Assembly (NCBI GenBank): GCA_947627765.1
Contig: CANQXA010000003.1
Coordinates: 12,713-76,712, forward strand
Length of the DNA: 64,000 nt
Direction: 5' to 3'
DNA from: an uncultured Clostridia bacterium
GTDB taxonomy: Bacteria; Bacillota; Clostridia; Christensenellales; Borkfalkiaceae
A program made the position numbers and the translations under genes. The stretch's first letter is position 1. Each line of letters opens with the position of its first letter. The notes beneath the pieces were generated by a model. It was not told the DNA's origin and did not search any database. It saw only the letters and a list, made by a program, of their open reading frames with translations. This document shows, piece by piece, positions 16,777-49,423 of the stretch.

Positions 16777-17853
16777 TCACCGCTTCCGTCCTGAAAAGAC
16801 GTCGGTCTCGAGGATCCCCGTCGAGAGCGTCTCCTTGGACGCGGCGGGCGCGGCTTCCTCGATGAGATCGCACAAAAACGCCCTGTTTTCGGAGAGGCTT
16901 TTCCCGAAGAGATAGCAAGAGAGCGACCCCGGAACCGTGTTGAGCTCGTTGAAATACACCCGCCCCTCCGCGACGAAGAAATCCGCCCGTACGACGCCCT
17001 TCCCGCCGAACGCGCGATACAGGGTGCGCGTATAGCCGCCGATCTCTTCGGTCAGCGCTTGGGGGAGGTCGGCGGGCAGTTGGTTCGTCCGCGCCCCCAT
17101 CTCGTACTTTTCGGAAAAGGTGAGGATCTCTTCGTCGGAGAAGACCTCCTCGGGCGGGGACAGCACGATCTCCCCCTTCCTGCGGCAGACGGCGCAGTTG
17201 ATGTCTCTCCGTGCGGGAAGATAGGCTTCGAGGAGGGCGCTGTCGTCCAGACGGAAGGCGAGGCCGAGCGCGCTTTCGAGCTCCGAGGGATCTTTTGCGA
17301 CCTTGATCCCGATGCTCGAGCCGAGGTGGGCGGGCTTGACGACGACGGGGAATCCGAGCTCCTCCGCAAGACTGAGCGCCGCCTCAAAGGGCTCCCCTTC
17401 GGCGACCTTTCTCCCCTCCAAAACGGGGATCCCGAGCCCCTTTGCGGCGATCTTCGTGAGCGTTTTATCCATGAAGACCGCGGACATGGGTGCCTCGGGC
17501 GACGCCGACGGGATCCCGTGGAAGCGCAGAAGGGCGGAGAGCGTGCCGTCCTCCCCCATCCCGCCGTGACAGCAATTCAGGGCGACGTCTATGTCTGCGA
17601 GCTTGCGCCCGCGCGCAGTGCGGAGCGTCCTTCCCTCGAGGCGGACGGGACGGAATTTTGTCTTCGCGCCCTTTCTGAAATCCTCCACGCCGCGCACGTT
17701 CCCCGTCATCATCCCGCACACGGGGGAGAGGATCACGGGCACGACGCGGTAAGATGTGTTGCGTAGCAAATTGACCGCCAACATCCCCGTGATCACCGAG
17801 ATCTCGCGCTCGTTGGATTTTCCGCCGAAAAATACGGCGACTGTTTTGGGCAT
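16777..17853 (-). CDS. ddl: D-alanine--D-alanine ligase
   Basis: 358 aa. MPKTVAVFFGGKSNEREISVITG.. and an ATP-grasp region (GFPVVVKPAHLGSSIGI). SD GGAGGTG upstream. Confidence 0.9.
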   Translation of the reverse strand: MPKTVAVFFGGKSNEREISVITGMLAVNLLRNTSYRVVPVILSPVCGMMTGNVRGVEDFRKGAKTKFRPVRLEGRTLRTARGRKLADIDVALNCCHGGMGEDGTLSALLRFHGIPSASPEAPMSAVFMDKTLTKIAAKGLGIPVLEGRKVAEGEPFEAALSLAEELGFPVVVKPAHLGSSIGIKVAKDPSELESALGLAFRLDDSALLEAYLPARRDINCAVCRRKGEIVLSPPEEVFSDEEILTFSEKYEMGARTNQLPADLPQALTEEIGGYTRTLYRAFGGKGVVRADFFVAEGRVYFNELNTVPGSLSCYLFGKSLSENRAFLCDLIEEAAPAASKETLSTGILETDVFSGRKR

Positions 17854-17909: not shown

Positions 17910-19499
17910 TCAGAGATACTTATCGGGCAAATCGTTGAGGAAGAGGACGGCGTCCCCCTCGGCGAGATCGTCGGCAATGAGGCGCGCCGCCTCCTTCAAC
18001 GTGGGCACGATGCGCAGGTTCTCCTCCGCGCCGCCCGCCTCGAGATAGCCCTGCCGCACCGAGAGGATCCTCGTCACGCCGACCAAAATGACCTCGTCGA
18101 GACCCGCAAAACTCGCCCCCAACTTCGCGTTCGCCTTGCCTTCGAGCGTCCCGAGCTCCACGAGCCCCGGGGTGACCACCGCCTTCCGCCCGGGGAAGAG
18201 GCGCAGAACTTCCACCGCGTCCTCCGCTCCCGCCACGTTGGAATTGTAGGAGTCGTCGAGAATGTTCAGCCCGTTCTTTTTCAGAAGCTCCAAACGGTGC
18301 GGCACGGGGCGAAGCTCTGCCGCCGCTTCGACGATCTCTTGCATTTCCACGCCCATGAGACGGGCAAGCGCGCCCGCGAGCGCAATGTCTTCCGCCGCGT
18401 GCCTGCCGAGAAGGGATGTCTTGACGGCCGCCCGTTCCCTGCCGTAGCAAAACTCGAAAGTCGTCCCCGAAGGCGTGCAGACGATATTCTCCGCCGAAAA
18501 GTCTCTCCCCTCGGCGAGCGCGTCTTCCCGCATCGCCGCGGCAGTGCGCCCGAGCACGGCTTTGCCCGCGCCCACCCGCATCGCCAAAACCGATTTCTCC
18601 TCGAAGATCGCCCGCTCGGAGCCGAACGTTTCGAGATGTTGCGGGCAAACTCCCGTCACGATGGCGTAATCGGGGCATACCATGTCCGCAAGCTCCGTGA
18701 TGTCTCCCCGTTGACGCGCCCCCATTTCGGCGAGGAAGACGTCGCAATCCAACCCTTCCGTATTCACGCATTTCGCGATGCCGACGGGGGTATTGTAGGA
18801 GGCGGGCGTGGCGATCACGCGGTACTTTTTGCGGAGCATTTCCGCGGCGATGGTTTTGACGCTCGTCTTCCCGAAACTGCCCGTGATCCCCACTTTGACG
18901 CACGGGCTCTCCCGCAACACGCGCCGCGCGCGGCGCAGGAACCCCGCCGTGTGCGGGATCTCGTAGATCTGCATGACGGCGTTCGCCGCCGCAAGAAGGA
19001 GGGGCAGAAAGAGCGGGAGAAGGGCGAGCGGGACCGTCGTGATCAAGACCTCGCCGAGCAAAGTCCCGATGGCGTTCCCCGCGGCATGGAGCCCCGCGCC
19101 CAAGCCGAACAACGTCCCGAAGAGGAACAAGAAGAAGGCGACGGAAAGGCGGATCATCCGCGGGGTCCCGTTCAGCGGGATCTTCAACGCGTGGCGGAAG
19201 GCGTAGACAAAGAATCCGCACGCGCCCGCAAAGGCGAGGACGGCGACCGCCTCCGCAACCGCCGCGCCCGCAAAGGCGAAGGAGAGGGACAAAATGGCGG
19301 AGAGGAGCGCCGCGCAGAGCGCCAGAAGATTGTACCGCCGCTGGGTCCCGTTTCTCGGACCGTAATACCATTTCACGAGCGCACAGCCGCGGTAGCCGAA
19401 CTGCTGAAAGATCCCCATCACGGGGCGTGCGGCGAAAAAGAGCGCCGCGGAGAGAACGACGGCGTCCGCCGCGGCCAAAATCAAATCAAGGGTCGGCAT
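17910..19499 (-). CDS. murF: MurF-like UDP-MurNAc-tripeptide--D-Ala-D-Ala ligase with a polytopic N-terminal membrane domain
   Basis: Mur ligase P-loop GITGSFGKTS, ASYNTPVGIA, DDSYNSN, PGLVELG. Adjacent to ddl. The first ~210 aa form about 5-6 hydrophobic helices. Start taken at ATG 19499 (MPTLDL), overlapping the upstream stop by 14 nt. Confidence 0.8.
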   Translation of the reverse strand: MPTLDLILAAADAVVLSAALFFAARPVMGIFQQFGYRGCALVKWYYGPRNGTQRRYNLLALCAALLSAILSLSFAFAGAAVAEAVAVLAFAGACGFFVYAFRHALKIPLNGTPRMIRLSVAFFLFLFGTLFGLGAGLHAAGNAIGTLLGEVLITTVPLALLPLFLPLLLAAANAVMQIYEIPHTAGFLRRARRVLRESPCVKVGITGSFGKTSVKTIAAEMLRKKYRVIATPASYNTPVGIAKCVNTEGLDCDVFLAEMGARQRGDITELADMVCPDYAIVTGVCPQHLETFGSERAIFEEKSVLAMRVGAGKAVLGRTAAAMREDALAEGRDFSAENIVCTPSGTTFEFCYGRERAAVKTSLLGRHAAEDIALAGALARLMGVEMQEIVEAAAELRPVPHRLELLKKNGLNILDDSYNSNVAGAEDAVEVLRLFPGRKAVVTPGLVELGTLEGKANAKLGASFAGLDEVILVGVTRILSVRQGYLEAGGAEENLRIVPTLKEAARLIADDLAEGDAVLFLNDLPDKYL

Positions 19500-23608: not shown

Positions 23609-24274
23609 TTACGTCTTCGGATGCGCCTCTTCCGCCGTTTTTGAAGGCTCTTCCTCGGACATGGGTGCCTCCGACGCGGCGACGCTCCGTTTACTCTTCC
23701 TATGCACGCGCTCGGAGGTAAGGCGTATGACGCGCGAGAGCGGCTTGTAGATCAAAAAGACGATGAGGGAGACCGCGACGCTCTTTACGGCGTTGAACGC
23801 GAGGACGAAATGCCATGCGCCCGCAAACGCCGCGCCCGCCGCTCCCCCCATGAAGAAGGGAAAGTTGATGTAGCGGTTGACGGGCAGGCTCACGGAAATT
23901 TGGAGGATACACGCTAAGAGCAGGTACAACGAGACCCACCACCTGCCCTTTTTGAAGCGGTAGACGACGGCGGGCAGGATGACGTACGCCGCCGACATCA
24001 GGAAGTTGGCGAGTTCCCCCACCCCGCCCGACGACGTCTTGGCGAGGCATAAAAGTTCCTTCGCGCCCACCGAGACGATCGCCTCAACGGGCCCGAAAAT
24101 GAAACCTTCGATCATGAAAAAGACGTTGGCGAAGTCGAGCTTCAAATAGGGAGCGGCGGGAAAGATGGGAAATTCGAGGAAGGTGACAACGAACGCGAGC
24201 GCCGTAAAGAGCGCCATGTACGCGATGTTGACGGGCGCGAAATGCGCCTTCAAAACTGAACGGACCGACTTCAT
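23609..24274 (-). CDS. ribU: ECF-transporter S component, riboflavin-specific (RibU-like)
   Basis: 221 aa from ATG 24274 (MKSVRSVLKAHF..). Multi-TM ECF S-component-like sequence. Sits directly downstream of an FMN riboswitch. Confidence 0.8.
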   Translation of the reverse strand: MKSVRSVLKAHFAPVNIAYMALFTALAFVVTFLEFPIFPAAPYLKLDFANVFFMIEGFIFGPVEAIVSVGAKELLCLAKTSSGGVGELANFLMSAAYVILPAVVYRFKKGRWWVSLYLLLACILQISVSLPVNRYINFPFFMGGAAGAAFAGAWHFVLAFNAVKSVAVSLIVFLIYKPLSRVIRLTSERVHRKSKRSVAASEAPMSEEEPSKTAEEAHPKT

Positions 24275-24314
24275 AAAGAACACCTCAAAAAAGTTTTTTC
24301 GGATATTCTTTGAC

Positions 24315-24349
24315 AAAAAACGAGCGCCCCATGTCTGAGACAGGGGCGC
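24315..24349 (-). terminator. Intrinsic terminator forming the FMN riboswitch expression platform
   Basis: Minus strand: GCGCCCC-tgtctcagacat-GGGGCGC followed by TCGTTTTTT. Lies between the aptamer and the ribU start. Confidence 0.7.
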
Positions 24350-24354
24350 GCAAA

Positions 24355-24472
24355 AACATCTTTCTTTTCTCATCCGGACTATACCGTCGGTACGGGAATT
24401 TCACCCGTTCGGGAGCCAAAGCTCTTAGCAGACTATACTGCCGGTGGAGAATTTCACTCCGCCCCAAAGAAT
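24355..24472 (-). promoter_or_regulatory. FMN riboswitch (RFN element)
   Basis: Minus strand: UUCUUUGGGGCGGAGUGAAAUUCUCCACCGGCAGUAUAGUCUGCUAAGAGC..CGGGUGAAAUUCCCGUACCGACGGUAUAGUCCGGAUGAGAAAAGAAAG. Matches the remembered RFN consensus (GGGGCAGGGUGAAAUUCCC.ACCGGCGGUA ... GCCGACAGU.AAGUCUGGAUG.GAGAAG). Confidence 0.85.
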
Positions 24473-24487
24473 ATTCGATCGTGGGAT

Positions 24488-24516
24488 ATTATAATACGGC
24501 GGGACGGGTTTGTCAA
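24488..24516 (-). promoter_or_regulatory. Consensus sigma-A promoter driving FMN riboswitch-ribU
   Basis: Minus strand: TTGACA (24516-24511), 17 nt, TATAAT (24493-24488). Confidence 0.6.
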
Positions 24517-24572: not shown

Positions 24573-25114
24573 CCGCCCCACCCTTCTGTCATCCTGAGCG
24601 TACGCGAAGGATCCCGAAGTACGTAGTCCGTCATCGACCAACGGGATTCTTCGGGGGCGTTGCCCCTCAGAATGACGTGCGTTTCATCATCGGGATTCTT
24701 CGGGGGCTTCGCCCCCTCAGAATGACAGAGGGGAGCATTCTCCCCGTCATCCTGAGCGTACGCGAAGGATCCCGAAGTACGAAGTCCGACATCGACCATC
24801 GGGATTCTTCGGGGGCTCTGCCCCTCAGAATGACGTGCGTTTCATCATCGGGATTCTTCGGGGGCTTCGCCCCCTCAGAATGACAGAGGGGAGCATTCTC
24901 CCCGTCATCCTGAGCGTACGCGAAGGATCCCGAAGTACGAAGTCCGTCATCGACCAGCGGGATTCTTCGGGGGCGTTGCCCCCTCAGAATGACGTGCGTT
25001 TCATCATCGGGATTCTTCGGGGGCGTTGCCCCCTCAGAATGACGTGCGTTTCATCATCGGGATTCTTCGGGGGCGGTGCCCCCTCAGAATGACGCGGGGC
25101 CATGGGTGGGGCGG
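24573..25114. repeat. Array of nested palindromic REP-like units (three 158-bp composite repeats plus extra 50-bp units), bracketed by an 11-nt inverted repeat
   Basis: Seven type-A units GGGATTCTTCGGGGGC-nnn-GCCCC(C)TCAGAATGAC start at 24643, 24692, 24801, 24850, 24959, 25009, 25059. Three type-B units GTCATCCTGAGCG-tacg-CGAAGGATCCC start at 24588, 24746 and ~24903. GGGGAG-catt-CTCCCC hairpins (e.g. 24730-24745). Flanks are CCGCCCCACCC (24573-24583) and GGGTGGGGCGG (25104-25114). Confidence 0.85.
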
Positions 25115-25128
25115 AAGCGGCCGAAGGC

Positions 25129-25165
25129 AAAAAAACGGACAGGGCGATGCCCTGTCCGTTTTTTT
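25129..25165. terminator. Bidirectional intrinsic terminator at the end of the glycan locus
   Basis: AAAAAAA-CGGACAGGGC-gat-GCCCTGTCCG-TTTTTTT. Lies 23 nt beyond the stop of the 1179-aa gene. Confidence 0.75.
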
Positions 25166-25187
25166 GCTTTTATCCAAAGGAGTCGGA

Positions 25188-28100
25188 TCAAAGCGCTGTG
25201 AGCTTGAAGTTGCCGAGCCTGAAACAGCCGTTCTCGTGACGGAATTGGATGGAGTCGATCGGCGCGCCAATGTTGCCCGCTTCCGTCGAAACGCTGACGT
25301 CGAACCCGTACCAAGGGAAGTACTGCTCGCCGTCTTCCGACCACGTCCATACGAAGTGGACGGTGTCGCCCTCAACCCTATGCTCGAGGCGAAGATGCGC
25401 AACCTTGCCGACGTCCGCACTCGGCTTATGGCCATCTACGTCCCAGCTCTCGTTGGATTTACTGCCGCCGGATCCCGTGGAGATCACATGGTCGTCGGCG
25501 CCCTCGGTGTAGACCCACATTCCGTTATCCCCGCACCAACCGTTGAAATTCCCGGTACGGTAGTTGAGAAGGAAGGAGGTCTTTTGATTGTCCGTCCAGC
25601 GTGCGATCAGGGCATAATCGAAGTCGAGCCTGAAATTATCTTTCCCGCCGATCGTGGCGCACAAGATGTTGGAGGCGCTGAGAGACGCAGAATTGTTTTT
25701 GCGGTGGACGAATACACCGTCCTTGGAGAACACGGCATTCTCGCGGTTTCCGATCTCCATAATGATATCGAAATCCGCCGCCCCTCTGCCGCCTGTGAAG
25801 ATGTGATCGACCCATTCGTTCATGCCCGTGCTCTTATCCTTCTCCGCGAGCGCGAAGACTTCGAACGTCTTTTCGGCGACGGCGGTCTCATTGTTTTTGG
25901 TCACCGTCATACGGACGGCGACGGACCCGCTTGCCGTGTTTTCGCCGAAATCTTCGACGAGGAGGTAGGGATAAGCCGCATTGCCCGCTACGGTGTAGAT
26001 CGCGGCGGTCTTGCCCGTCGTGTTGGAGCCCTCTACGATCGCGTAGGAGACGTCTTCATAGGTGAGCGCACTGCCGTCGGCGCCCTTTGCGTCGAAGTAG
26101 AGCTGTAAGCCCGCGCTGATGAGGATCTTTCCGTAGGTGCCGCCGAAGGGATCTTCCGCGAAAACGGGAGAATTCTCGACGCTCGTGACAAAGCTGACGG
26201 GGATCTCCACGCTCTTCACCGTCGTTTTTACGGTCTTATGCGTGTACGTTACGGTAAAGATGACGGTGTTGCTCGCGGTGGAGCGGACGGAGATGCCCGT
26301 TCCCTCCTGCGCCGCGACGACGGAGGCGTTCTTGTCGCTCGACGAATAGGAGACCTCGTAACCCGCGGCGTTGCCGTCTAAGGTGTACGCGATCACCACG
26401 TCGGCGTTGAGCGCGGCGCGCTTCCAGCCGTTCGTGAAGCCCTCTTTCTCGAAGCCGAGGGTGATCTCGGCGGGGGTCGCCGTGAAGGTCACGGTCTTCT
26501 TCACCGTATGCTCCTTTTGAGAGGTCACGGTGACTTCGATCTGATACTCGCCTGCGAAGAGGGGCTTGAATTCCTTGTGCTCGCTACCCACCCATTCGTA
26601 GAGGGAAGGATCGGCGTTGACGAAGTTTTCACCCTCTTTCACAAAGACGGCGTACGTTACGGTGCCCTCGGCGTCGCCCTGGGTATAGGTGACCTGCAAC
26701 GTGAGCGTGACGGTCTCACCCTCCGTAAGGGTCTCCTTTGCCGCGGTGAAGGTCACTTCGGGCGGGAACTTCGTGGGATCGGGCAGAGTGACCGTGACCG
26801 TCGCACTGCCGCTTGCGGTCTCGCCGTGGAAGGAGACGGTCACCGTGACGGTATAGGTCCCCTCCGTATGGAAGGTAAACGTCTTGGCGGCTTCGTCGTA
26901 GGTATAATCCTCTCGGGCGGCGGGAGCATCGCCCTTGACGACGGCGATCTCGGTCTTGCTACCCTCTTCCGCCGTGTAGGAGAACGTGACGGGAGTCTCG
27001 GTCTCGGCGGTCTCGGCGGAGAATGCGGGAGCGGGCGCGGGAAGCGCCTTCTTCCAATGGAAGTTTGCCGTACAGCCCGTGAAGGTCAGCGCCTGTACGT
27101 TGACGTCCGCCTCCGCGGTGATCGCGGTCAGGTTGGCGCAGTTGGTGAATGCGTCCGCCGTGACCGTTCCGCCGAGGATGTTGACCGTCTTGAGGGAGTT
27201 GGGGATGTAGAACCCTTCCGTCTTCGTGAACTTCTCACCGTTCTGTTCGGCAGTGCCGAAGAGATAGCCGAGATGAGCGGAGACGGCATTGTCAGAATCG
27301 ATGTTGGAGCCGACGAAGGGGATCGTGAGCGTCGCGAGCTTTTCACAGCCTGCGAACCAGCTTCCGAAGTGATACTCGACGCCCGCTTCCACCGTCGCCT
27401 CTAAGAGTTCGGTGCAGTCCGCAAAGGCGTTGTTGGCGATCATGGGTAGCTTGGGATCGCTCTGGGAGAAGGTCTCTTTTGCCATGGCGGGCACGGTGAG
27501 GGAGGTAAGCCCACAGCCGCGGAAGGCGTTCTGCCCGATGTAGTAGAGCCCTGCGGGGAGCGCGATCTCTTGGAGCGCGGCGCAACCCGCAAACGCCTGC
27601 GTCCCGATCTGGCGCAGACCGTTCGGGAGGGTGACGCCGGAGAGAGCGGTGCAACCGTGGAAGAGGTTGCTTCCGAGGATGGTGACGCCGTTCGGGATCG
27701 AGATCTCTTCGAGGAGGACGCAACCGTTGAAGACTTGGTCGCCGAGGTTGATAAGTCCCTCGGGAAGGCTCGCAGTGGCGAGTCCGGAGCAACCGTCGAA
27801 GGCGTAGGACGAAACCGTGATCACGCTCGCGGGCAGTTCGGCGCTTTGCAGGGAGGAACAGCCGTAGAAGGCGCCCTCGCCGATCGTCCGGAGGGAAGTC
27901 ATCTCCGCGAAGTTGACCGTTTCGAGCGAAGTACAGCCGCTGAACGCTTCCTTGCCGATCGAGGTGAGGGTGGCGGGCAGTTGGACAGAGGTGAGCCCCG
28001 TCATGTCCTCGAAGACATAATCGGCGATCTCAACGACGGAGCCGCCGTTGTAGGTGGCGGGGACGGTCAGTTCGGTCTCGAGCTTGCCCTTTCTCGTGAG

Positions 28101-28727
28101 CGAAGTGAGGCGGTAGCCGCCGCTTACGGAGCTGAAGATGAAGAGCAGTTCGGGATTCTTATATTGGCAGACCGTGCAGACGCCGTCGATATCGTAGGTG
28201 TGAAGCGCCTCGCCCGACTTTCTCGAACAGCCGCAGGCGGCGGCGTGCCAGTGGGTATTTTCCCCGCTCGTCCAGTGCTCGGTGTCGTAGAAGTGCCTGC
28301 CCGTCTTGAGGATCCGCTTGTATTCCTCTTCGTAGTCGCAGTTCTTGCAAGCCTTGTGCGCCGTCGCGCCGTCCGTCTCGCAGGTCGGAAGGACCATGGG
28401 GACGTCCTCGAGCTCATGCCCGTGAGGTTCGATCGTAACCGTCTCCGAATAGCCGCAGATCGAACAGCTCACCGTCTTGGAACCGGGATCTTCGCAGGTC
28501 GCGTCGATGACGTTGCTCTCCGTGATGGTATGGGCGGCTCTTTCCGAAGTGACTTCGTGCCCGCAAGTTGCGTCGTGCCAATGTTCGGAGGAATTGTAGC
28601 TCCAATTTTTGGAGAACGAGTGCTCGGTGTGCTCTCCGCCCCCCTTCGGGCCGCAAGCCCCGAAGCACAGCACGGCGGCCATTGCCGCGGCGGCGAAGAC
28701 GAAATATTTTCTGAGATTCTTTTTCAC
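25188..28727 (-). CDS. Surface lipoprotein (1179 aa): Cys/His-rich N-terminal modules, BspA-type LRRs, Ig-like region, C-terminal beta-sandwich (possibly DUF1080/LamG-like)
   Basis: GTG start at 28727, 6 nt after AAGGAGGT. Lipobox VLCFGAC/GPKGG. LRR_5 units (LPATLTSIGKEAFSGCTSLETV..). C-terminus ..GAPIDSIQFRHENGCFRLGNFKLTAL resembles DUF1080 ends (low confidence for that domain). Confidence 0.85.
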   Translation of the reverse strand: MKKNLRKYFVFAAAAMAAVLCFGACGPKGGGEHTEHSFSKNWSYNSSEHWHDATCGHEVTSERAAHTITESNVIDATCEDPGSKTVSCSICGYSETVTIEPHGHELEDVPMVLPTCETDGATAHKACKNCDYEEEYKRILKTGRHFYDTEHWTSGENTHWHAAACGCSRKSGEALHTYDIDGVCTVCQYKNPELLFIFSSVSGGYRLTSLTRKGKLETELTVPATYNGGSVVEIADYVFEDMTGLTSVQLPATLTSIGKEAFSGCTSLETVNFAEMTSLRTIGEGAFYGCSSLQSAELPASVITVSSYAFDGCSGLATASLPEGLINLGDQVFNGCVLLEEISIPNGVTILGSNLFHGCTALSGVTLPNGLRQIGTQAFAGCAALQEIALPAGLYYIGQNAFRGCGLTSLTVPAMAKETFSQSDPKLPMIANNAFADCTELLEATVEAGVEYHFGSWFAGCEKLATLTIPFVGSNIDSDNAVSAHLGYLFGTAEQNGEKFTKTEGFYIPNSLKTVNILGGTVTADAFTNCANLTAITAEADVNVQALTFTGCTANFHWKKALPAPAPAFSAETAETETPVTFSYTAEEGSKTEIAVVKGDAPAAREDYTYDEAAKTFTFHTEGTYTVTVTVSFHGETASGSATVTVTLPDPTKFPPEVTFTAAKETLTEGETVTLTLQVTYTQGDAEGTVTYAVFVKEGENFVNADPSLYEWVGSEHKEFKPLFAGEYQIEVTVTSQKEHTVKKTVTFTATPAEITLGFEKEGFTNGWKRAALNADVVIAYTLDGNAAGYEVSYSSSDKNASVVAAQEGTGISVRSTASNTVIFTVTYTHKTVKTTVKSVEIPVSFVTSVENSPVFAEDPFGGTYGKILISAGLQLYFDAKGADGSALTYEDVSYAIVEGSNTTGKTAAIYTVAGNAAYPYLLVEDFGENTASGSVAVRMTVTKNNETAVAEKTFEVFALAEKDKSTGMNEWVDHIFTGGRGAADFDIIMEIGNRENAVFSKDGVFVHRKNNSASLSASNILCATIGGKDNFRLDFDYALIARWTDNQKTSFLLNYRTGNFNGWCGDNGMWVYTEGADDHVISTGSGGSKSNESWDVDGHKPSADVGKVAHLRLEHRVEGDTVHFVWTWSEDGEQYFPWYGFDVSVSTEAGNIGAPIDSIQFRHENGCFRLGNFKLTAL

Positions 28728-49009: not shown

Positions 49010-49055
49010 CATCGGCCAAGGGGATTCTTCGGGGGCGTTGCCCCCTCAGAATGAC
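49010..49055. repeat. Dispersed copy of the type-A palindromic unit (same family as the array at 24573-25114)
   Basis: CATCGGCCAAGGGGATTCTTCGGGGGCGTTGCCCCCTCAGAATGAC. Confidence 0.8.
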
Positions 49056-49376
49056 GCGTTAGTGGAGGGTTTCCCCTCTCAATTCCGTCATGTCGAGCTT
49101 GTCGAGACATCTCTACAATATTAAGGATGAGATTTCTCCACGCGCTCGCTATCGCTCGCTTGGTCGAAATGACGTGGGGAAGAACGCGCTTCGCACTCCG
49201 CTACTTCGCCTGTGGCTACTTCACCTTCGGCTCGTGCCGACCTTGGTATCACAAATAGAAACTTCGGTCGGGGCGTGCCGTGCTTCGATACACAATAGAA
49301 GCCTCGCCTGGGGCGAAATAACGGATAGGTGGGCATTCCCTGCCGCCGCAACGGGTAGGGGGGTGGGCATTGCCCC

Positions 49377-49423
49377 GTCATCGACCAAGGGGATTCTTCG
49401 GGGGCGTTGCCCCTCAGAATGAC
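49377..49423. repeat. Dispersed copy of the type-A palindromic unit with the GTCATCGACCAA prefix
   Basis: GTCATCGACCAAGGGGATTCTTCGGGGGCGTTGCCCCTCAGAATGAC. The unit and its prefix closely match those at ~24630-24676 (one-base difference). Confidence 0.8.

Follow-up and report, generated by a model that had tools for sequence, protein, structure and literature searches.

A tandem array of dispersed tandem-G.A hairpins in a gut clostridial genome and its probable kinship with Ssn-related and CGTC-tagged repeats

The 64,000-nucleotide stretch of an uncultured Clostridia bacterium analysed here (assembly GCA_947627765.1, contig CANQXA010000003.1, positions 12,713 to 76,712; hereafter the window) carries, between the gene ribU and a gene for a large leucine-rich-repeat protein, a block of about 0.5 kb that consists almost entirely of repeated hairpins. 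A preliminary description of the window had called this block similar to the repetitive extragenic palindromes (REPs) and bacterial interspersed mosaic elements (BIMEs) of other bacteria. What kind of repeat fills this intergenic space, and which enzyme, if any, is its partner? Our answer, to which we assign a probability of roughly two in three, is that a dispersed single-stranded DNA (ssDNA) hairpin repeat, of the kind described elsewhere as CGTC-tagged REPs and as Ssn-related motifs (SRMs), is clustered here in tandem in the manner of a BIME. The anatomy of the hairpins and their association with genes for Ssn-type nucleases in related genomes carry this answer.

The hairpin unit, its array and its dispersal

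Read 5' to 3' on its own strand, the repeated unit has the consensus YGTC-A-N4-GA-[inner stem and loop]-GA-N4'-T-C. Its plan is a pyrimidine-rich 5' leader, the YGTC tag, a 5-bp outer stem that always begins with an A-T pair, a symmetric 2x2 tandem G.A loop, a variable GC-rich inner stem and a CC or TC tail. Units were counted with the pattern GTCA-N4-GA...GA-N4-TC, which does not demand pairing. The genome contains 76 of them, and the outer stems are perfectly complementary in 76/76. They fall into four classes, TTCT:AGAA (31 units), TGTC:GACA (18), TCCT:AGGA (18) and TTTC:GAAA (9), with zero combinations mixing two of the four. At the loci of Ssn-type genes (ssn) in the genus ten outer-stem classes occur, and 106 of the 137 units there are paired, against 15 expected with shuffled partners. 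The inner stem, which lies inside the GA/GA internal loop and is 2–10 bp long, varies between genomes by compensatory changes (GGGGGC/GCCCCC, CCCC/GGGG, GGC/GCC, GC/GC). Immediately before GTCA, 56 of the 76 units have C and 20 have T, and a purine never occurs there; the tail is CC in 48/49 units and TC in 27/27. GA stands on both arms within a pyrimidine-GA-purine context, and many of the loops are GNA closed by C-G; both features are noted for stabilising DNA hairpins.

Two types of convergent doublet are formed by these units, TCCT-> / <-TTCT, with a shared 31-nt spacer, and, elsewhere in the genome, TGTC-> / <-TTTC. When folded with ViennaRNA and DNA parameters, the TTCT unit reaches -10 kcal/mol (z -2.4), and a whole doublet is able to fold back as a single long hairpin (-20.3 kcal/mol, z -3.1).

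The array itself spans positions 24588..25094, with units on both strands. It comprises ten units in the order TCCT forward, TTCT reverse, TTCT reverse and leader junction, this set occurring twice, followed by one forward TCCT and four reverse TTCT units, so that three TCCT-class units lie on the plus strand and seven TTCT-class units on the minus strand. The period is 158 for three copies and then 50: Tandem Repeats Finder returned period 158 (2.9 copies, 24588-25043, 95% matches, score 847) and a second period of 50 (2.7 copies, 24958-25094, 98% matches), in agreement with the three 158-bp composites and two further 50-bp units that had been described. Copies 1 and 2 of the 158-bp repeat differ at five aligned positions, and in copy 3 the terminal part, type C of the preliminary description, is replaced by the additional 50-bp units. 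The first TCCT-class unit (24588..24613, plus strand; also 24746-24771 and 24904-24929) reads GTCATCCT-GA-GCGTACGC-GA-AGGATC, and the tail CCGAAGTACGWAGTCC follows each of the three. The first TTCT-class unit (24645..24676, minus strand) reads GTCATTCT-GA-GGGG(G)C-NNN-GCCCCC-GA-AGAATC, and its other minus-strand copies lie at 24694-24726, 24803-24834, 24852-24884, 24961-24993, 25011-25043 and 25061-25093. In its 40-nt form this unit was returned in seven copies by a repeat search, the number previously counted, at spacings of 49/109/49/109/50/50. The corresponding pattern has 6 matches in the window and none in 100 shuffles; one of the matches (49021-49055) is in the dnaK-dnaJ spacer.

The preliminary description had distinguished three hairpin types, and this division does not hold. 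Its types A and B are one unit type in opposite orientation, differing in outer-stem class (TTCT and TCCT, respectively), and its type C, GGGGAG-catt-CTCCCC (24730..24745, second copy 24888-24903), arises where a TTCT unit on the minus strand and a TCCT unit on the plus strand stand back to back and their C-rich 5' leaders abut. The 11-nt inverted repeat said to bracket the array is exact, and a length of 11 nt was reached in only 11/5000 composition-matched shuffles of the flanks. The left copy, CCGCCCCACCC (24573..24583, plus strand), is the leader motif at the 5' side of the first unit, itself on the plus strand, and lies within a CCGCCCCA micro-repeat of 2.2 copies. The right copy, GGGTGGGGCGG (25104..25114), is that motif again, read on the minus strand and standing upstream of the last unit, which is likewise on that strand. 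The 11-mer has 15 copies in the genome, mostly as the start of a longer C-rich repeat, and is not private to the array. What had been read as a bracket is a leader common to the two outermost units, which face inward, and the evidence does not establish it as the terminal inverted repeat of a composite element. The two open reading frames (ORFs) named earlier, 24677..24883 and 24835..25092, do exist.

A search of the whole 1.46-Mb genome confirmed that the hairpins form a dispersed family, as had been proposed: the 76 units are grouped in 36 clusters, of which this array is the largest. The units stand in both orientations and in equal contexts genome-wide, and only 9/76 lie wholly within ORFs of at least 250 aa, which make up 83% of the genome. 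The likeness to REPs and BIMEs is thereby borne out at the level of architecture, with dispersed, mostly extragenic hairpins of alternating orientation in mosaic clusters. A second cluster of the window, in the dnaK-dnaJ spacer (49023..49173), contains a TTCT unit (49023-49055, minus strand), a TGTC unit (49087-49111, plus) and a TTTC unit (49131-49173, minus); an additional TTCT unit (49392-49423, minus) lies near it. The assembly is a 46-contig draft, 93% complete, the smallest contig of the bin being 2.6 kb. Within it 8/36 clusters lie no more than 700 nt from a contig end, and the flanks of the present array are unique sequence inside an 84-kb contig.

Several other features accompany the hairpins. 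A separate dispersed repeat has 40 copies in the genome, in most of which a C/G hairpin, CCCCCTCC-N4-GGAGGGGG, is followed by GTAGGGGGGTGGGC; the copy in the window (~49354; C3:62066) adjoins the TTCT unit at 49392-49423, and a related form that starts with GCCGCCCCACCCCC is the source of the 11-mer of the array. As many as 23/40 copies of this C/G repeat lie at most 150 nt from a hairpin unit of the Ssn type, forming mosaics of the two families. Ahead of many full hairpin units there are stutter copies of the 5' half-site and leader, with a period of ~21–24 nt (for example GTCATCCTGACCCGCCCTTCT x3), as at C2:81052-81119, C10:4533-4580, C20:24377-24424 and the related loci L143 and L148; such copies may be traces left by repeated cutting or repair on the upstream side of the hairpin. 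Two small lipoprotein-like genes outside the window (C20:13550-14143 and C20:23485-23988) are each enclosed by hairpin clusters and recall the clusters of the Neisseria repeat NTS that have been reported around membrane-protein genes (PMC11893778). A search for any other enzyme gene enclosed between neighbouring clusters of this genome yielded only small lipoprotein-like ORFs and a tRNA-like stretch.

Ssn-type nuclease genes in related genomes

The gene for SsnA of Neisseria, a small GIY-YIG protein, has NTS on its flanks; SsnA binds NTS as ssDNA only and cuts upstream of it (PMC11893778). The same behaviour, hairpin binding as ssDNA only and a cut just upstream, has been described for the Ssn enzymes of both Neisseria and Wolbachia (PMC11893778). 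Among the 121 genomes of the genus, small GIY-YIG genes are of two kinds, a YhbQ/UPF0213 type and an Ssn-like type. Proteins of the latter are ~91–103 aa long, score 56–71 bits against Pfam GIY-YIG and share the consensus ...LYIGVTN-L-RR--EH---...GFT--Y...REKQLK-W-R-KK--LI---NP-W-DL; in the class sample considered below, Ssn-type genes are clearly set apart from the YhbQ/UPF0213 type (>90 bits vs <=67 bits). Tandem-GA hairpins lie within 300 bp on both sides of 20/30 Ssn-type genes and on one side of 4/30, and variant hairpins were seen by eye at the other 6/30, whereas none of the 10 YhbQ-type control genes is flanked by hairpins. The flanks of the ssn genes hold 8.2 hairpins per kb, compared with 0.76 per kb farther off and 0 in the reversed-sequence control. 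A small GIY-YIG gene of the YhbQ/UPF0213 type is likewise present in most genomes of the genus and the class and is never flanked by hairpins; the label 'GIY-YIG nuclease family protein' used in annotation pipelines hides the difference between the two types.

The arrangement around the genes is regular. The upstream hairpin is on the strand of the gene and usually ends ~30 nt ahead of the start codon, and the downstream hairpin is commonly inverted and of another class than the upstream one. In a tree of the 30 Ssn-like proteins, grouping follows the pair of flanking classes, including TCCT+/TTCT- (as in G016 and G042) and TTTC+/TGTC- (as in G020 and G013). These class pairs, TCCT/TTCT and TTTC/TGTC, are those of the two doublet types of the present genome, and outer-stem class is probably the specificity determinant for the cognate Ssn clade. 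In the congener G075 the tail CCGAAGTACGAAGTCC of the TCCT units of this genome stands downstream of a TCCT-class hairpin, ~170 nt upstream of ssn. Another congener, G016, has a TCCT hairpin carrying a closely similar tail, with 7 nt between its end and the start codon of ssn. In G056, gene-less doublets lie beside ssn, and each has a spacer equal to the two flanks of the gene, 5' and 3', joined together.

Repeat abundance and ssn also occur together at the level of genomes. Within the genus an Ssn-type gene is present in 11/19 genomes with at least 10 hairpin copies and in 22/102 of the others (odds ratio 5.0, p 0.003; 3.7–5.0 and 0.001–0.003 over all comparisons). Of 300 genomes sampled evenly from the class, 8 hold an Ssn-type gene, and 7/8 of these are hairpin-rich, compared with 15/292 without the gene (odds ratio 129, p 3e-8). 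The family shows two traits by which SRMs are recognised, namely an oriented, mostly extragenic hairpin repeat of 20–50 nt, in many copies, with GTC-A at its 5' and T-C at its 3' end (YGTC in 76/76 units) and, in genus and class alike, co-occurrence of the repeat with the gene. Hairpins of this design extend well beyond the class: the exact 26-mer GTCATTCTGAGCGNAGCGAAGAATCC was found in at least 120 stretches across the DNA scanned, and the matches listed come from about a dozen phyla or comparable groups, including Acidobacteriota, Chloroflexota, Verrucomicrobiota, Patescibacteria, Bacteroidota, Nitrospirota, Ignavibacteria, Armatimonadota, Desulfobacterota, Proteobacteria and Bacillota. At 3/120 of the listed loci an Ssn-type gene lies directly between or beside the hairpins.

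These observations suggest the following history of the array. Units that in relatives stand on either side of Ssn-type genes, which encode small nucleases with a single GIY-YIG domain, would have reached this locus when a convergent TCCT->/<-TTCT doublet landed between the terminator and the ribU promoter in this lineage. Local amplification by slippage or unequal exchange would have followed, first of the 158-bp segment to three copies and next of the 50-bp segment to two. The effects of the array now would be those of ssDNA hairpins or cruciforms and of recombination substrates and, were Ssn supplied, either strand of the array would offer sites for cutting. The anatomy, the covariation and the association with ssn in relatives are observed; that the units are cut, how they spread and what they might do for the host we infer from the comparison of sequences.

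A number of points weigh against this reading. No Ssn-type gene was found in the genome, 93% complete as assembled, by a Pfam GIY-YIG search and a permissive tblastn search. A weak GIY-YIG hit at C5:56760-56891 (19 bits) was rejected, its motif being unconvincing and no hairpins lying nearby. Hairpin-rich genomes lacking a detectable Ssn-type gene amount to 15/22 in the class sample and 8/19 in the genus, so the repeats can persist in the absence of the enzyme, and another partner is possible. The association statistics for genus and class ignore relatedness. The published SRM string, HGTCWYN(0-2)YYVSBRHN(0-5)WNVSBRGN(0-2)RNCYNB, matches 0 units of the array and 0 of the family; its 13 hits in the genome equal the ~13 expected by chance. 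For the short TCCT unit, nearest-neighbour DNA parameters predict no stable fold. Finally, NCBIfam holds no model for Ssn-type proteins, and the placement of the proteins of the congeners in cd10448, made by size, motifs and context, is putative.

Some of these points are tempered by other observations. Since metagenome-assembled genomes (MAGs) break at hairpin repeats (9/30 ssn genes of the genus are within 1.5 kb of a contig end), the absence of ssn is weak evidence, and the array is either part of an orphan population or served by a gene lost from the assembly. The published string is its authors' search heuristic and not a definition of the family; it is the association with ssn in relatives, and not that consensus, that speaks here for membership of the SRM kind.

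A wider proposal can be put forward only tentatively, and we think it more likely to fail than to hold. Tandem-G.A hairpins would constitute a widespread, so far unlisted class of Ssn substrates with a readable specificity code, the 4-nt outer stem, of which at least ten covarying versions in one genus would match particular clades of Ssn. Two different classes would serve each ssn element, one 5' and one 3', gene-less convergent doublets would be progeny of ssn elements that arose by internal deletion, in the manner of miniature inverted-repeat transposable elements (MITEs), and most hairpin-rich Clostridia would keep large orphan populations after loss of the gene. If this is true, the descent of gene-less doublets from ssn elements would provide the first evidence, from comparison of genomes, for present or past mobility of Ssn elements.

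Alternative explanations and the neighbouring genes

The alternative that fares best, and that we nonetheless hold to be improbable, reverses the order of events. The hairpins would be primary and older, spread by a host process or another enzyme, and the ssn genes would be secondary selfish colonisers homing into hairpin clusters; orphan arrays would then be the normal state and not relics. Such a history would account for the 15/22 hairpin-rich genomes of the class sample without an Ssn-type gene, for ssn genes sitting within many-unit arrays that look pre-existing, and for the presence of GTCATTCTGAGCGNAGCGAAGAATCC in about a dozen phyla with only 3 ssn genes at 120 loci among the matches listed. 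It is at odds with the correspondence between Ssn clades and hairpin classes, and the G056 doublets, whose spacers join the two ssn flanks, fit derivation of doublets from a gene-bearing element. The lack of ssn genes, moreover, may in part result from assembly breaks, with 8/36 clusters at contig ends and 9/30 ssn genes at most 1.5 kb from one.

A second alternative is that the array acts at the level of RNA or transcription, independently of any nuclease, as a terminator back-up, an insulator or an mRNA stabiliser between its two neighbours. Both adjoining genes are on the minus strand. Upstream lies the gene for the LRR_5 (BspA-type) protein (25188-28727, 1179 aa), which is ended by a bidirectional intrinsic terminator with 22-bp arms (25124..25170). 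Downstream, 72 bp from the edge of the array, a perfect consensus promoter, TTGACA-17-TATAAT (24488..24516, minus strand), serves the flavin mononucleotide (FMN) riboswitch (24358-24475, minus strand; Rfam 104.9 bits) and the energy-coupling factor (ECF) S-component gene ribU (23609-24373, minus strand). The array fills ~90% of the space between terminator and promoter, its TTCT hairpins are stable (-10 kcal/mol, z -2.4) on the strand that would be transcribed, and REPs of E. coli stabilise upstream mRNA, all of which could be taken in favour of such a role. An array placed between a terminator and the next promoter is, however, unlikely to be part of either transcript: little read-through is expected downstream of so strong a terminator, which also makes a 3' untranslated region of the glycan locus (the LRR gene side), a possibility raised earlier, an improbable role for the array. 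The units stand in both orientations and in equal contexts throughout the genome, and no Rfam family matched the array at gathering or E-value thresholds. In the 11 nearest species (75–79% identity over ribU) the ribU promoter and riboswitch are alike, with zero hairpins upstream, so that the array is lineage-specific and dispensable for ribU control. Taken together, these data leave an RNA-level function with a small probability. Synteny with the nearest species ends exactly at the array and, at 75–79% identity, the pre-insertion site could not be reconstructed from an empty-site comparison. The minus strand between tandem TTCT units (24995-25060) contains GATGATGA-N13-CTGA, which resembles the C and D' boxes of archaea. 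Weak Rfam hits to miRNAs and to archaeal C/D-box snoRNA families (the snoRNA hits at bits 11–19, E 0.07–8) were set aside as chance matches, explained by the GATGATGA...CTGA strings.

It is very unlikely that the array is a REP/BIME mobilised by a REP-associated tyrosine transposase (RAYT, of the IS200/IS605-type Y1 family), as in enterobacteria and pseudomonads. This is the frame that the preliminary description had implied while reporting no RAYT in the window, and the architecture is indeed alike, with extragenic palindromes, inverted doublets and mosaic clusters; Y1_Tnp genes, too, are present in the genus. The absence of a RAYT extends from the window to the whole assembly, which contains no match to Y1_Tnp (PF01797) in a genome 93% complete. 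Y1 matches were found in 31/121 congeners, 4/19 of the repeat-rich ones (one of the four being a fragment) and 27/102 of the others (odds ratio 0.74, not significant), and over the 121 congeners no association between Y1 and the hairpins is seen (odds ratio 0.7–0.9), which runs counter to that frame. In addition, the tag is YGTC and not GTAG, and the YGTC class had no transposase association in a 2013 study (PMC3733652). Least likely of all is that short-read assembly of a metagenome bin produced the array, or its number of copies, as an artefact. Although the draft has 46 contigs that often end in these repeats, and 158-bp tandem repeats are hard to size from short reads, the copies are not identical (five differences between 1 and 2, another 3' part in copy 3) and anchor the assembly path, the flanks are unique within an 84-kb contig, and similar arrays occur in many independent assemblies.

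One further dispersed word was encountered in this genome. The 9-mer CCATGTCCG has 260 copies in 1.46 Mb, on both strands, compared with 3 for the reversed word. In the window it starts on the plus strand at 18680, 21142, 43058, 47720, 48961, 52662, 53270, 60976 and 61648, and its complement is found at 17481, 22620, 23656, 43544, 46054 and 62452. Its extended context is GAC-N12-(T)ACCATGTCCG, and TACCATGTCCG is the commonest 11-mer of the genome. The 10-mer ACCATGTCCG is abundant in some congeners (126 copies in G015, 65 in G005, ~40 in each of G002, G008 and G012) and at background (2–10) in other congeners and other families. A start-codon context was considered and rejected; the word could be an uptake-signal-like or another short dispersed motif.

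The interpretation of the array as a cluster of SRM-like, CGTC-tagged hairpins accounts for a striking block of repeats, for the repeats that fill the dnaK-dnaJ spacer and for many of the contig breaks of this genome, and implies that the pseudo-ORFs within the array should not be called as genes. It would extend the Ssn/SRM system to gut Clostridia and add a new hairpin design, a bipartite stem with tandem G.A pairs. The published SRM string misses this design, and surveys built on it may miss such hairpins. Covarying outer stems matched to nuclease clades would offer a natural panel for studying how very small enzymes read ssDNA, the property that makes Ssn enzymes attractive as ssDNA tools. 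Should the array be no more than an orphan relic, it would count as selfish or structural DNA of an ordinary sort.

Relation to known repeat systems

Neither the hairpin sequence nor its pseudo-peptides turned up anything relevant when searched for in the literature, and the comparison below is with described systems of similar design. The first of these is NTS of Neisseria, CGTCATTCCCGCGMAVGCGGGAATCYRG, described together with SsnA (Chenal et al., Nat Commun 2025; PMC11893778). Homologues of Ssn number in the thousands, and SRMs were reported around 71% of the genes (PMC11893778). The present hairpins share with NTS and the SRMs the 5' tag and outer arms (CGTCATTCC...GGAATC in NTS, YGTCATYC...GRATC here), an oriented hairpin with a conserved upstream part, and dozens of clustered, mostly extragenic copies; in relatives of the present host, the repeats likewise lie on both sides of a single-domain GIY-YIG gene of ~90–100 aa. 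They differ in that a conserved 2x2 tandem G.A loop breaks the stem, that the inner stem varies, that each ssn element of the relatives uses two different outer-stem classes, and that the host is a Gram-positive gut clostridial MAG with no ssn gene, the variant being known from sequence alone.

The second system is that of the CGTC-tagged REPs, under which dRS3 and its relatives were grouped by Di Nocera, De Gregorio and Rocco (BMC Genomics 2013; PMC3733652), with dRS3 itself in CGTC-1. Those repeats have stems that begin with an A-T pair and a short unpaired tail (mostly CCA), form inverted dimers and have no known transposase; their stems are continuous and 8–9 bp long with loops of 4–5 nt, and they were found in Proteobacteria, Chlorobi, Bacteroidetes, Spirochaetes and Thermotogae (PMC3733652). 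An unpaired CGTC or TGTC tag at one end, an A-T-first stem, a short unpaired tail, inverted dimers and clusters, and the lack of an associated tyrosine transposase are common to them and to the hairpins described here. In contrast to the CGTC-tagged REPs, the present family has a bipartite stem with G.A mismatches and is found in Bacillota and many more phyla. With its 5-bp stem, GA/GA loop and variable inner stem it therefore falls outside the four described families, CGTC-1 to CGTC-4.

The likeness to the REP/BIME and REPIN-RAYT systems of enterobacteria and Pseudomonas is of a more general nature. Extragenic palindromes, mosaic tandem clusters in intergenic space and inverted doublets that are able to fold back as one long hairpin are shared, whereas the GTAG tag, a RAYT in the genome and an association with Y1 transposases in the genus are all wanting here. 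The hairpin family of this array, which does not match the published consensus, is probably a variant of the SRM / CGTC-tagged REP kind.

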